Positions 10,757 to 62,964 of a stretch of 64,000 nucleotides of DNA are shown piece by piece; within the stretch, counting starts at the first letter, position 1, and every line of letters begins with the position of its first letter. The stretch covers positions 1 to 64,000 of the forward strand of contig JAYZQJ010000209.1 in NCBI GenBank assembly GCA_036149055.1, given 5' to 3'. The translations under genes were made by a program, and so were the position numbers. The stretch comes from Myxococcota bacterium (lineage in GTDB: Bacteria; Myxococcota_A; Polyangia; Polyangiales; Sandaracinaceae). The notes under the pieces are model-generated. The model made no database searches. It saw only the letters and a program-made list of their open reading frames with translations, and had not been told where the DNA came from.

Positions 10757-11888
10757 GGGCGACGTGCTCGTCTCGGGCCGCTTCTTGGTGGTCCGCGCCG
10801 GGTTGGGATCTCCGGTCCTCGCGGAGGATCGCGAGGAGGGGGGGCTCGTCGAGGTCGTCCAGAGCGACGTCGGGCTGCTCGACCGTGTCGCTCTCGAGGA
10901 GATGCTCACGCGCGCCCACGCGCTCGGGGACGCGCGGCTGGTGCTCGCGCTCACCACTCACCCGGTGTGCATCCCGTACGAAGCCGACGACCCGACGCCC
11001 GCGAGCGGCACCGCCGAGCTCGCCGACGCCGCGCTCGACCTGCTCGAAGTCGTCGGCCTCGCGCTGGCGGCACGGGTGGAGGTCGATCCACGCCGCGCCT
11101 GGCTCGGGTCGAGCGGAGTCCGCCTCCCCGCGCCTGCGCCCGCGCTCTACTGGCGCCGCTGGGCGGTCGAGGGCGCAGGTCCCGAGCTGTTCATGGCGGG
11201 GGTCTGGGAGTGGTACCGTCGCCGCCGGGCCGCGATGGAGCCCCGCGTCGAGCTTCCCCGTGAATGGGACGGCTCCCGGGTCGGAGAGCTCGCGGCGCGG
11301 TTCGCCGCCGAGTGCTCGAACCGCGCCCTCGGCGAAGCCCGGGCGCGCGCCCTCGCGGAGTGGCACCGATTCGATCCGCCTCGCCCGGACCTCGATCGCG
11401 TGATCGAGCTGGGTGAGGCGCTGTTCGCCCGTGTCGGGAGCAGTGAGCCGGCCATCGACTACGAGCCGCCGCCGGCGGACTTCGTGCTGGCCGCCGCGTA
11501 CCACCACAGGGCTTGTGTGGCGTGGGCCGAGGGACGAAAGGACGCAGCGCGCTCCGACGTCTCGCGCGCCTGCGCGATCGATCCCTATCCTCGCTACCTG
11601 ACGACCGCCGCGCTCTTCGAGGAGGGCGACGTCGCTGCCGGCCTGCACGACCGGGCCGTCGCCGCGATCCTCGAGGCGCACGAGGACCCGTTCCTGGACG
11701 GTGGGAACCTCCGCGAGCGAGTCGATGCCCGAGACGCCGCGCGAACGCTCCATGCCCGCGGCGTGCATCGGCTGCGCGCCGGAGATCACGAGGCGGGCGT
11801 GCATGACCTCCGCGAGTCGCTTCGACACCTGAGCGATCCTCGCGTGGAGGCCGCGCTCGAGCGCGCGCAGGCTCGTAGCCGCGGGTAG
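10740..11888 (+). CDS. Hypothetical protein with TPR-like C-terminal helices
   Basis: AYHHRA...DAARSDVSRACAIDP and TLHARG..RLRAGD.EAGVHDL. The start is uncertain. Confidence 0.6.
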   Translation: MPLPSKGDVLVSGRFLVVRAGLGSPVLAEDREEGGLVEVVQSDVGLLDRVALEEMLTRAHALGDARLVLALTTHPVCIPYEADDPTPASGTAELADAALDLLEVVGLALAARVEVDPRRAWLGSSGVRLPAPAPALYWRRWAVEGAGPELFMAGVWEWYRRRRAAMEPRVELPREWDGSRVGELAARFAAECSNRALGEARARALAEWHRFDPPRPDLDRVIELGEALFARVGSSEPAIDYEPPPADFVLAAAYHHRACVAWAEGRKDAARSDVSRACAIDPYPRYLTTAALFEEGDVAAGLHDRAVAAILEAHEDPFLDGGNLRERVDARDAARTLHARGVHRLRAGDHEAGVHDLRESLRHLSDPRVEAALERAQARSRG

Positions 11889-21770: not shown

Positions 21771-23228
21771 ATGCACGCTCGAATCGCGATCGCGGTGCTC
21801 CTCCTCGCGGCTTGTGGAGGGGACGACGGAGGGGTCGACGGAGGCGCCAGGATGGACGCCGCGCCCGGAGACGCGGCCCTCGGAGCCGACGCGTCCGACG
21901 GCGTCGACGCGGGGGACACGGCGGACGCGGGCCCGGCCGACTGCTCGGCGGCCAGCGAGCGCGAGGGCTGGGAGCTGTGTCAGAGCACCGCGAGCCGATG
22001 CGAGATCGTGTTCACCGACTCGAGCGGGTGCGCGGCGGTGTGCGCCGCGGTCGGCCTGGGCTGCGCGGCGGCGTACGAGGACGTCGACGGCGCGTGCGCG
22101 CCGAACACCGATCTGCCGGCCCTCTCCTGCGAGGGCACCGGGCACATCTCCGACTACTGCGTGTGCGGCGAGCCGGCGCGCTGCGGCGATGGCGCGTGCG
22201 ACCCGGGCGAGACCTGCGGCGGCTGCGCCGACGACTGCGGCGCGTGCCCCGCGTCGGACTATCGCGACCTGCTCGACGAGGCCGTCGGGTTCGCCCGCCC
22301 GACCGGCGGTCGCGACGGCTCGCGCGTCTTCGTGACCACCACCGCCGCCGACGGCCCCGGCAGCCTGACGGAGGCGCTCGCCATCGCCGGGCCCAAGTGG
22401 ATCTCCTTCGAGGCCGGGCTGACCGGCACGATCACGCCGTCGCGGCCTTGGTCCGTTCCCGCCGACACGACGATCGACGGACGAGGCGCCGAGATCACCC
22501 TGGGCGCGGGCCTCCGCGTCGTCGGCACCGACGCCACCAACATCGTGATCCACGGGCTCGTGTTCGAGGTCGCCGAGGACGACGCCGTCCAGATCCGCAA
22601 CGGGGCCACCGACGTGTGGGTCGACCACTGCTCGTTCCTGCGCTGGGGCGACGGAGGGGTGGACGTCACCAACGGCGTGGACGGAGTGAGGACGCGCGTG
22701 ACCGTGTCGTGGTCCCGCTTCATCGGAGGCTCCAAGGCCATGCTGATCAGCGCCACCTCGGATCCCGCCGCCGGCTACGCCGACGAGAACCTCTACGTGA
22801 CCCTGCACCACAACTTCTACTCGGGTGTGCAGGAGCGGACCCCGCGCGTGCGGTTCGCGAAGGTCCACTCGTTCAACGTCGTCGCCGAGGACTGGGAGGG
22901 ATACGCGGTCGGCGCCAGCACGCTCGCCGAGGTCCTGGTCGAGAACAGCGTGTTCGACGCGGGCTCGAACACCCGGGCGTGTCGCACCGTGTGCCTCGGC
23001 TCCGACTGCGATCACCACGGCGGCGTGGGCGGGGCGCTGCGCGCGAGCGGTAACCTCCTGGACGAGGGCGCCCGGCTTGCGGTCTGCGAGACGAGCGCGC
23101 CCGACACGGTCTTCGACGAGTTCAGCGGCGGGGCGCCACCCTACGCGTACTCGCTCGACGCTGCCGACGCCGCGCTCCGGACCCGCGTGCGCGCGACCGC
23201 CGGCTGGCGAGCCGTCCCGCTGCCCTGA
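21771..23228 (+). CDS. Pectate lyase (PL1-like beta-helix) lipoprotein with Cys-rich N-terminus
   Basis: LAAC lipobox, GPGSL, TIDGRG, DAVQI, VWVDHCSF, VTLHHN and ERTPRVRF. Confidence 0.88.
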   Translation: MHARIAIAVLLLAACGGDDGGVDGGARMDAAPGDAALGADASDGVDAGDTADAGPADCSAASEREGWELCQSTASRCEIVFTDSSGCAAVCAAVGLGCAAAYEDVDGACAPNTDLPALSCEGTGHISDYCVCGEPARCGDGACDPGETCGGCADDCGACPASDYRDLLDEAVGFARPTGGRDGSRVFVTTTAADGPGSLTEALAIAGPKWISFEAGLTGTITPSRPWSVPADTTIDGRGAEITLGAGLRVVGTDATNIVIHGLVFEVAEDDAVQIRNGATDVWVDHCSFLRWGDGGVDVTNGVDGVRTRVTVSWSRFIGGSKAMLISATSDPAAGYADENLYVTLHHNFYSGVQERTPRVRFAKVHSFNVVAEDWEGYAVGASTLAEVLVENSVFDAGSNTRACRTVCLGSDCDHHGGVGGALRASGNLLDEGARLAVCETSAPDTVFDEFSGGAPPYAYSLDAADAALRTRVRATAGWRAVPLP

Positions 23229-23327
23229 AGGGTCAGCGCGGCTGGCCTTCGCGTCGACGCTCGGCCGATGAACTGCTCCGGCGGGCAGCTGCCTCCCGAG
23301 GAGCTCGATCATATCGAGCGTGAGAGC

Positions 23328-56302: not shown

Positions 56303-57187
56303 TCACCGGGCGAGGCACTCGACGAGCAGGTCGAAGACCACGCGGATCCGGCGGCTCGTCCGGACCTCACGGTGGGCGGTGACCCAGAGCGGCACCGGGA
56401 ACGCGACGTCGGGGGCGACGCGCACGACGGCGGGCTCGGCGTCGCCGACCTCCTCCATCACCATGCACAGCGCCACCCCTCGCTTGCAGAGCTCCCACTG
56501 CACGAGGTGGTTCTCGGTGACGACCGGGAAGTGCGCGCGGGTCAGCTCCACGCCGAGGCGGCGGAGGCCGTCGATCATGAGGGTGGAGCGGTCGAAGGCG
56601 AACAGCTCGGCGCGCTCGAGGTCCTCCGGTGCCTCGAGCGGGCCGACGCGCTCGAGGTAGCTCGGGGCGGCGTAGACGCGCGCCATGGACTCGCCGACCT
56701 TTCGGGCGATGAGGTCCGGCTCCTTCGGCTGGAAGTTCCGGATGGCGATGTCCGCCTCGCGCCGGCGCAGGTCGCGCGCGCTGTTGGACGCGACGATCTC
56801 GAGCTCGATCGCGGGGTGGGCCTCGCGGACGCGGAGCACGGCGGGGCCGAGCAGGTGCGCGGCGACGAGCTCGCTCGCGGTGACGCAGACGGGGCCCTCG
56901 ACCGACAGCGCCTGTCCGGTCGCCGACAGCGAGACCCGGGTCGCCGCCTCGCCCATCTCGCGCACGTGCTCGACGAGGTCGCCCCCCGCGGTGGTCAGCT
57001 CCAGCGCGTTGCCGATGCGCTCGAAGAGCGTCACGCCGAGCTCCTCCTCCAGCTGCGCGACCTGGCGCCCGATGGTCGGCTGCGAGACGCCGAGCGCGCG
57101 GGCGGCCGCCGAGAAGGACCCCTCCTCGGCGCTCACGAGGAACGCCTTCGCCCGGTTCCAGTCGAAGCGCACCGACCGCCAGTCCAT
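56303..57187 (-). CDS. LysR family regulator
   Basis: EEGSFSAAARALGVSQPTIGRQV..LEEELGVTLFER. Confidence 0.95.
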   Translation of the reverse strand: MDWRSVRFDWNRAKAFLVSAEEGSFSAAARALGVSQPTIGRQVAQLEEELGVTLFERIGNALELTTAGGDLVEHVREMGEAATRVSLSATGQALSVEGPVCVTASELVAAHLLGPAVLRVREAHPAIELEIVASNSARDLRRREADIAIRNFQPKEPDLIARKVGESMARVYAAPSYLERVGPLEAPEDLERAELFAFDRSTLMIDGLRRLGVELTRAHFPVVTENHLVQWELCKRGVALCMVMEEVGDAEPAVVRVAPDVAFPVPLWVTAHREVRTSRRIRVVFDLLVECLAR

Positions 57188-57275
57188 GCAATAACGCATA
57201 ACATGGATTCGGAACTGGGGGTCGCCTCAATGGAAGTGCATGGATAGAACGGGAGGGCACTCGAAAGGAGCCCTC

Positions 57276-57983
57276 GTGACCCACCCCATCCACAGAGTCT
57301 GCATCGTCGGCGCGTCCGGAAAGCTCGGTCAGTACATGGTCGAGCACTGCCTCGAGCGCGGCTACGAGGTGGTCGGCGTCTGCCGGGAGGAGAGCGTCGG
57401 CAAGCTCGCGCGGTTCGCCGACCGCATGACCGTCGTCCCGGGCTACACCAACGATCCGGCGGTGATCGCGCGGGCCGTGCGGGGATGTGACGGCGTCCTG
57501 ACCGTGCTCGCGCCGTGGGGCGTGCAGCAGTACTCGTCCGGGACCGCGCAGGCGGTGCTCGACCACGCGGAGCCGCATGCCCGGCTGGTGTTCTCCTGCG
57601 GCTGGCACATCACCCGCGACGGCGAGGACGTCTACTCGCCGCTGTTCCTCTGGATCCTGGCCATCGCCGCGTGGATCGCGAAGCTCGTGCGTTTCGCGGA
57701 GATCGACGACCAGGTGGAGGCGTGCCGCCGCATCTTCGAGAGCGACCGCGCGTGGACGGTGGTCCGGGGCAGCGACCTCGAGGAGGGCGAGAGCCAGGGC
57801 CTCCCCGTGTGGAGCGAGCACGTCGGCGACCCGATCCTCGAGAGCAACAAGACGCGCCGTATCGACTTCGCCCTCTTCATGGTCCACGCGCTGACCGACC
57901 CGGCGCTCGTCCGGCAAGTCCCCGCCATCAACGGCTGCCAGACGCCCTCCGCCCTCGCCCACACCGAGCTCGCCGCCGCGTGA
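57276..57983 (+). CDS. NAD(P)-binding Rossmann protein (flavin reductase/NmrA-like)
   Basis: IVGASGKLG, WTVVR and TRRIDFA. GTG after AAGGAG, divergent from the LysR gene. Confidence 0.88.
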   Translation: MTHPIHRVCIVGASGKLGQYMVEHCLERGYEVVGVCREESVGKLARFADRMTVVPGYTNDPAVIARAVRGCDGVLTVLAPWGVQQYSSGTAQAVLDHAEPHARLVFSCGWHITRDGEDVYSPLFLWILAIAAWIAKLVRFAEIDDQVEACRRIFESDRAWTVVRGSDLEEGESQGLPVWSEHVGDPILESNKTRRIDFALFMVHALTDPALVRQVPAINGCQTPSALAHTELAAA

Positions 57984-57998: not shown

Positions 57999-58070
57999 TC
58001 GGGGACGATCCTATTCAATCATCGAACTCGGGGACGATCCTATTCAAACCATCGAACTCGCAGGGGGACG
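57999..58070 (+). repeat. About 2.3 tandem copies of a 29-30 bp unit
   Basis: TCGGGGACGATCCTATTCAATCATCGAAC / TCGGGGACGATCCTATTCAAACCATCGAAC / TCGCAGGGGGACG. Confidence 0.9.
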
Positions 58071-58105
58071 GCGCAACCGATGGAGTGACGGGCCGAGTAC
58101 CGGTC

Positions 58106-58999
58106 ATGCCTCGACGACGAAGGAGCTGGGTGCCGGGCGCAGGTGCACATTCGATCTCACGGTTCGTGGACCGCGGGTTCCGGGTGGTCGACCGAGCAGA
58201 CTTCGATTCCTTGATGGACGCCATCGGCCGTGCGACCGAACGCTGGGACTGGACGTGGCTTTCCTTCGCCGCGATGTCGAGTCACCTGCACTACGGTCAC
58301 TTGGCTGGGCAGATGGACCCGGACCCCTTCTTTCGGTCGGTCCACACTCGCTTTGCCGTTCGGTATCATCGGCGCCCGGGGCGAGAGACCCTCGGGCCGG
58401 TGTTCGCGGGACGCCCGGAGATCCATCCCATTCGCGAGGGGACGCTCGCGCAATTGGTCGCGTACCACCACCGCAACCCGTCGGAGGCGAACATGGTGAG
58501 GTTGCCGCGCGATTCGCACCGGACCAGCCACCGCTTCTACCTCCGGCTGGACGAGCCTCCGCCGTGGCTCGACGTGGAACGATGTCTGGAGCTGCTCGGC
58601 TTCCGAGACACCGCTGCCGGCCGAGAGCGCTTCGATCAGTTCGTGAACGAGGTGGACCTGTCCGACCGGCCCTGGGACCGAAGGGAGGCTGCCGCGTTGC
58701 GGGAGAAGGCCGTCCGGAGCGGCGGGGAGAACGTGGACTGGGCGCGAATCATCGGAGTGGCGCGGGCGGTCGCGCGCGTGCCGCAGGGGGTTCCGCTCAC
58801 GAGTCGATGTCCGGCGGCGGTCGAGGCGCGGCTCCTCGTCGCGATGGTCGCCACGAGAGCGCTGGGCCAGACCTGCTCCGCGGTCGCCTTGGCGCTGGGG
58901 ATGACGGCGGGCGGCGTTTCGAACCTGCTCACACGAAAGGCTTCGCAGAGCACGGGGGCTTACCATCGGATGGTCGAGGCCCTGGAGATCGATGAATGA
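58106..58999 (+). CDS. REP-associated tyrosine transposase-like (Y1 HUH) with C-terminal HTH
   Basis: MPRRRR..PG..H..SR, AMSSHLH (HUH), GPVFAGR and YHHRNP (catalytic Tyr). C-terminal SAVALALGMTAGGVSNL HTH. Codon usage appears less GC3-biased than neighbours. Confidence 0.85.
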   Translation: MPRRRRSWVPGAGAHSISRFVDRGFRVVDRADFDSLMDAIGRATERWDWTWLSFAAMSSHLHYGHLAGQMDPDPFFRSVHTRFAVRYHRRPGRETLGPVFAGRPEIHPIREGTLAQLVAYHHRNPSEANMVRLPRDSHRTSHRFYLRLDEPPPWLDVERCLELLGFRDTAAGRERFDQFVNEVDLSDRPWDRREAAALREKAVRSGGENVDWARIIGVARAVARVPQGVPLTSRCPAAVEARLLVAMVATRALGQTCSAVALALGMTAGGVSNLLTRKASQSTGAYHRMVEALEIDE

Positions 59000-59322
59000 A
59001 TAGGATCGTCCCCGGGTCCCTAAATGGTGTCGAGTGGCTCGAGCCGTGGAGGCCGGTCGACGCCAAGCTCCGAGAGACTGCCGAGCGGGAGCTGGGGCGT
59101 GAGCTCGTGCGAGGACATCCGCTCCATGGACGCGAGTGCCGTTGCGTGGCGGCGGGCGACGTCGACGATGTGCTGTTCATCGTCGACGGTGAGGCGCTGG
59201 CGATCGTGCACCTCACCTGGAGCCGTGAGCGCGATCCTCGGTGGCCCTCGACGCGTCTCCTGCCGGACGTTCAGGCGTTCGTGGCGGAGATGCGCAGGGA
59301 CCACGCCGAGCTCGATGAATGA
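58996..59322 (+). CDS. Small hypothetical protein (EL.RE..GHPL, DDVLF, VHLTW motifs) between direct repeats
   Basis: The start ATG and stop TGA both lie inside the 26-bp repeat copies. Confidence 0.7.
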   Translation: MNRIVPGSLNGVEWLEPWRPVDAKLRETAERELGRELVRGHPLHGRECRCVAAGDVDDVLFIVDGEALAIVHLTWSRERDPRWPSTRLLPDVQAFVAEMRRDHAELDE

Positions 59323-59337
59323 ATAGGATCGTCCCCG

Positions 59338-62964
<3,627 letters not shown>

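Follow-up and report, generated by a model that had tools for sequence, protein, structure and literature searches.

The closest described counterparts of the locus presented here are the TIRtrons, whose transposases (TIRYT; Di Nocera et al. 2013, PMC3733652) correspond to subclass 2.1 of the TnpA-Y1 proteins (Quentin et al. 2018, PMC6006769) and to RAYT group 1 (Bertels et al., 10.1101/119735), according to the parts of these reports that were available to us. The accessible text of the first report describes dispersed TIR families, dimers, clusters and repeats lying over the 3' end of the transposase ('3'ov'), with a GGGGWSAS tag that is common to some TIRs only, and the accessible text of the second finds subclass 2.1 proteins in about 15 % of the surveyed strains. 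In the literature, part of which was accessible in excerpt, we found no biochemical study of subclass 2.1 proteins and no reported TIRYT activity. A TnpA-REP of subclass 2.1, the same subclass as the enzyme described here, has been linked to prochlorosin genes and was proposed to act on neighbouring genes, a causal claim that was later withdrawn; unlike at our locus, the prochlorosin genes are oriented towards the transposase, and inverted repeats were not found there (10.1101/2020.03.09.984088).

The locus lies in the window, which is the whole 64,000-nt stretch of DNA analysed, on contig C209 of a genome of 9.9 Mb and 73 % GC that we call G000. The element is bounded on the left by two tandem copies of a repeat that we define as family A (58000..58029 and 58029..58059, + strand) and on the right by two copies in inverted orientation (58985..59014 and 59308..59337, − strand), an arrangement that was reported in an earlier note on this DNA and that we reproduce; the left copies were delimited by repeat comparison and a PWM scan. 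The outer end of the repeat is GGGGACG-tagged, and the tag here, GGGGACGA, matches the TIRtron GGGGWSAS at 6 of 8 positions. The repeats enclose a Y1/HUH tyrosine transposase of 297 aa with the motifs H60-L61-H62 and Y120-H-H-R-N-P and a C-terminal HTH (58106..58999, + strand), followed by a passenger gene of 108 aa (58996..59322, + strand). We also confirm the further details of that note. The two right copies are 323 nt apart, identical over 26 nt and alike at 29 of 30 positions, and each holds the D-E-stop of the open reading frame before it (transposase ..IDE*, passenger ..LDE*). The inner right copy contains both the transposase stop and the passenger ATG at 58996, which overlap as ATGA, and this ATG is the sole ATG, GTG or TTG before codon 38, other near-start codons being ATC at codon 4 and CTG at codon 33. 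A Shine-Dalgarno-like GGAG (58984..58987, + strand) is positioned 8 nt 5' of the ATG and may serve the passenger. The outer right copy contains the passenger stop and adjoins, with zero gap, the TAA (59338-59340) of a dnaE-like host gene, putatively for a DNA polymerase III alpha subunit (59338..62964, − strand), which forms the right boundary of the element.

No terminator was found at the locus, a single weak promoter-like site falls within the transposase, and Rfam gave no match. Directly to the left of the element are a divergent LysR regulator and an NAD(P)-binding gene (56303-57983), which are missing at the corresponding locus of a second genome of the same genus (G001); no repeat bounds this pair on its left side.

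Like a TIRtron, the element combines a Y1/HUH core with Y---NP, a C-terminal HTH and low copy number with flanking inverted non-REP repeats that carry a GGGG tag, that are dispersed as singles, dimers and clusters, and that overlap the 3' end of the transposase. It departs from the TIRtrons described in the accessible text of PMC3733652 by having a passenger that takes its start as well as its stop from repeats, and its tag agrees with GGGGWSAS only in part. The TIRtron itself has been known since 2013 (PMC3733652, available in part); new here is a real gene framed by two copies on the right side, which have taken the place of its original start and stop. With the REPtron or RAYT-REPIN system (E. 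coli TnpA-REP, PDB 4ER8; PMC8266576, likewise available in part) the locus shares the fold, a single-copy enzyme, flanking and dispersed repeats and inverted dimers, but unlike in REPtrons (RAYT groups 2 and 3) there is no GTAG/GTGG-footed palindromic REP or hairpin and the enzyme has an extra HTH domain.

The enzyme had been assigned from its sequence to RAYT-like Y1 proteins with a C-terminal HTH, and this assignment holds. The residues H60, H62, Y120 and N124 of the HuH and Y---NP motifs are invariant in an alignment of 34 out of 34 homologs, and the predicted model (pLDDT 87.6) has TnpA-REP 4ER8 as its top Foldseek match (E 8.7e-7), followed by the IS608 and ISDra2 transposases. Support for the HTH comes at the level of the family, whose profile matches the DnaA C-terminal domain at positions 211-278 (E 8.5e-4); HTH_23 is matched by 12 and Bac_DnaA_C by 3 of the 34 members, and neither by this protein alone. 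NF047646 matches the transposase weakly, at E 0.008, short of its cut-off. The enzyme is a TIRYT, subclass 2.1 of TnpA-Y1, and the element is a TIRtron. An IS200/IS605 element was considered and is ruled out by the length of 297 aa, the Y---NP motif in place of Y---Q, the single copy and the lack of a hairpin. G000 has two TIRYT genes, about 30 % identical. The second TIRtron (344 aa enzyme, contig C63, 7855-9100) is flanked by its own family C repeats (64 copies) and is orthologous to one on contig C138 of G001, whose repeat tail differs.

A genome-wide search for the repeat, which the earlier note had called for, showed it to be real but to belong to a dispersed family rather than to be a purely local site. 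Family A has 73 copies on 40 contigs of G000 compared to 0 in the reversed genome, and is thus not due to chance. The copies are arranged as singles, tandem runs and inverted dimers, and one of the 73 falls within a called gene. As 40 of them are situated within 700 nt of a contig end, the copy number may be undercounted. The exact 15-mer of the repeat is found 57 times in G000 and 57 times in G001, and 0 times in the remaining 30 of the 32 family genomes. The folding energy of one copy is only -1.2 kcal/mol, with no hairpin. The exact text encoding D-E-stop and MNRIVP is present in 13 of the 73 copies, and 18 of the 73, the locus variant included, have stops in all three frames; since that variant is common and stops every frame, a stop codon inside the repeat comes cheaply. 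Three further GGGACG-tagged repeat families of 55-64 copies each occur in G000.

Some further observations concern these repeats. A-type copies are frequent neighbours of long tandem arrays of hexamers close to contig ends (C11, C59 and C97). Neither of the two TIRYTs found in G000 is cognate to family B (60 copies) or family E (55 copies), and the 57 A-type copies of G001 differ from the TIRs flanking the three TIRYTs of that genome, which suggests enzyme loss or replacement. Other abundant palindromic families of G000, of which the two largest have about 80 copies apiece, are unrelated to the TIRs. In viral contigs neither the repeat nor a TIRYT was found. One unpublished genome (G042) is counted in the genome tallies only.

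Related genomes had been proposed as the place to look for an empty site, and G001 provides one: the order there is kinase, TIR, transposase, TIR and dnaE, with no passenger. The orthologous element has one repeat per side with a different repeat tail, and its transposase is 70 % identical compared to 87-91 % for the neighbouring genes. The passenger family, present in 17 of 301 genomes of the order, was not found in G001. Cassette variation at the locus, which the earlier note had also anticipated, was not found, and no second cassette was seen: all five further records of the species carry the same passenger, namely L022, which is 99.5 % identical, and the contigs of four out of four runs, taken from 4 studies. 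No 323-nt skip was seen among 15 of 43 joints in the same-species contigs, which drop rare variants. The element was beside none of the 11 dnaE 3' ends of other genera (0/11), so that the exact pre-insertion site and a target duplication cannot be defined.

The passenger is a real gene. Its family is widespread, with 2878 representatives at E ≤ 0.001 and homologs across many phyla, and in the predicted model the whole domain folds confidently (pLDDT 88). Searches of Pfam, NCBIfam and PADLOC gave no match, all matches of the Atlas search were under 0.9, and the model retrieved nothing at E ≤ 0.001 in Foldseek. A cystatin-like fold (VIA best Z 6.5) and immunity proteins (Z 4.3-5.0) were rejected on scores that are too weak, and one of 30 longer homologs carries a CdiI_3 fusion, which we note as a lead only. 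Codon usage is atypical, as it is in the transposase.

Comparison with homologs bears on the claim that the repeats supply the start and stop of this gene. Close homologs free of the repeat start M-I-x-P-x-D-L-(D/E)-G-V, and C-termini in the family mostly lie 7-9 residues past a conserved D (21 of 36). These native starts and ends match the repeat junctions, and we therefore conclude that the first and last codons have been replaced in frame by the repeat. The MNRIVP start was found in 2 of 277 family proteins, P0003 and P0171. The latter, 83 % identical to the passenger, also ends ELDE and so keeps both repeat-encoded ends. P0171 and the protein P0182 are each encoded on a 2196-nt contig, likely, by rough estimate, one and the same. 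P0182 is a TIRYT, 59 % identical to the locus transposase and 69 % to another TIRYT of G001. If the contig is shared, P0171 would sit beside a different TIRYT and the unit would have moved more than once.

We extended the comparison to the order, where TIRYT relatives are present in 57 of 401 genomes, and examined 61 of the 98 matches, namely the stronger ones with flanks. Inverted repeats, often in 2-4 tandem copies, were found at 54 of these 61 loci and none at the other 7, and a tagged repeat pair at 47 of 53 re-examined loci. The transposase stop falls inside the first right copy at 16 of the 47 loci with a tagged pair. A small gene exactly framed by two copies was found at 1 of the 54 repeat-flanked loci, which is the locus described here. 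The seven other gaps of at least 200 nt at the 54 loci contain either genes that have ends of their own or no gene at all. The other right-hand outward frames examined, including outward ORFs at five other TIRtrons, are not gene-like, the exception being L262, which is gene-like but has its own internal ATG.

We favor, at a probability of about 0.55, the reading that the locus is a TIRtron with a foreign gene that was joined to the repeat at the right end by its TIRYT in a one-off capture. The C-terminal HTH would recognize the sequence of the repeat, in keeping with the lack of a hairpin, and the HUH/Tyr120 core, by analogy to TnpA-REP (PMC8266576, as far as available), would nick and rejoin single strands at the repeat ends. 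Such nicking and rejoining could spread the repeat in single, tandem or inverted form and occasionally carry adjoining DNA, and the 323-nt unit, consisting of the gene body and one repeat, may in this way have been added behind the original right end. As the TCAT boxes in the repeats of this clade are ATGA on the opposite strand, start and stop may have arisen as a by-product, and translatability, with coupling to the transposase stop, is the probable reason why the in-frame product was retained. Against a one-off capture, no excised or empty form was found in the same-species contigs, in which rare variants are dropped, P0171 may lie beside a different TIRYT, and the exact in-frame fit at both ends, better than a blind insertion would normally produce, points to selection or a targeted mechanism. 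Alternatively the gene may have come by another route, for example as an integron cassette or through microhomology recombination, with the repeats later hopping or recombining onto its ends and the TIRYT not being the carrier. We consider this history unlikely although not far-fetched. Repeats do land on gene ends elsewhere, as at an orthologous junction with a B-type copy in G000 (C80 ~11776-11800, L284) and an A-type copy in G001 (L087:7795-7853), where the stop of the upstream gene is inside the repeat in both genomes; the repeat junctions of the passenger resemble native codons; and a strict scan found attC-like sites at 6 of 80 passenger homolog loci compared to 0 of 240 control positions, with one further locus added by manual look. 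But the same scan found no attC remnant beside the passenger in the TIRtron, two well-placed events would be needed, and both right copies are of the same variant, common to only 13 of the 73 family members. It is very improbable that the passenger is a decaying fragment, untranslated from the repeat ATG and in frame by accident. A database call (P0167) puts the start of the passenger at residue 51, P0003 has an altered and shorter C-terminus and the codon score of the passenger is low, but 4 sequences of the same species, as well as P0171, keep an unbroken frame, the domain folds as a whole, and the Shine-Dalgarno-like GGAG and the ATGA overlap are both present.

The earlier note had interpreted the locus as an integron-like gene capture system. 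Integrons consist of IntI, attI and attC cassettes. As in an integron, the unit here is a gene plus one downstream site, the stop codon is within the site, and some members of the passenger family do have attC-like flanks; unlike in an integron, the enzyme is of the HUH type and not a tyrosine recombinase, there is one unit and no array, the attC hairpin is lacking, and the enzyme too lies between copies of the site, which are inverted relative to each other. All four PF00589 matches are on other contigs, so that there is no IntI at the locus. Of this interpretation, the empty state in G001, the replaced native ends and their recurrence in P0171 are supported. The notion of a dedicated system is not: we found neither an array nor cassette variation, the repeat is an inverted end with no attC-like hairpin, such a gene occurs at one of 54 loci, and outward ATGs show no enrichment in frame with genes. 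We doubt strongly that the TIRYT inserts and shuffles gene-plus-repeat cassettes with the ATGA selected for coupling, and we are just as skeptical of a hairpin-free cassette system run by the TIRYTs of this Sandaracinaceae/myxobacterial clade, whose units would be excised and inserted at repeats with conserved ATGA boxes providing start and stop codons, so building the shuffled repeat-dense islands of both genomes. Besides the gene with its one downstream site, the empty state and P0171, possibly beside another TIRYT, such a system would account for the outward ATG, whose register is shared by 7 of 12 repeats from the close clade compared to 0 of 35 others (these repeats being kin and not independent). 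It would also account for repeat-dense islands in which about one small accessory gene lies between successive TIR copies of several families (L086, L087 and L091 in G001; L281, L282, L283 and L284 in G000), one of which differs in gene order between the two genomes. At the C80 junction, the B-type ATG of G000 opens a 20-residue N-terminus and thus supplies a full lipoprotein-signal-like start. Against a dedicated system, neither TIR nor TIRYT was found at any of the 80 loci of passenger homologs (a set in which two loci are probably one and the same contig), the passenger is identical in L022 and all four runs, and island genes face both directions. Of the 135 copies of type A or B in which an ATG faces outward, 5 open into a coding frame compared to 3 and 3 for the other frames, a count from which the passenger is excluded because it scored under the cut-off. 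Strain-specificity is not clearly higher for genes that have a repeat on either side, 5 of 12 being shared with G000 compared to 115 of 217 unflanked genes, themselves drawn from repeat-chosen stretches (P 0.56), and there is no more than a hint that synteny is lost across repeats, where 7 of 12 neighbour pairs are still neighbours compared to 215 of 263 pairs without a repeat (P 0.06). Both of these tests, made on small numbers with a home-made gene caller, covered 849 kb of G001, of which 400 kb were repeat-blind and 449 kb repeat-chosen.

The locus offers a compact test substrate, in which the enzyme and its cognate repeat come together with a candidate unit of 323 nt and an empty state that exists in nature. 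Should the unit move, it would represent a new route of gene capture; should it be immobile, the locus would still show a gene that mobile repeats have remade at either end.

A few other genes beside repeats deserve mention. In G000, the ATG of an A-type repeat on C178 shares its frame with the gene of a 197-aa membrane protein (57343-57936, L279), whose closest match in G001 is 35 % identical and which has an alternative start, TTG, three codons beyond the repeat; it is a possible third case of a repeat-supplied start. A gene apparently ending in a repeat on C143 of G000 was rejected, its frame being antisense to a real gene. On L241 (genome G139), two right-hand TIR copies at a distance of 2.35 kb enclose a 748-aa gene on the opposite strand, which may be cargo. 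On contig C35 of G000 (22438-23294), a 107-aa gene is located between two A-type copies of the same direction, and its product may resemble the four-helix-bundle IVP/bAvd proteins.
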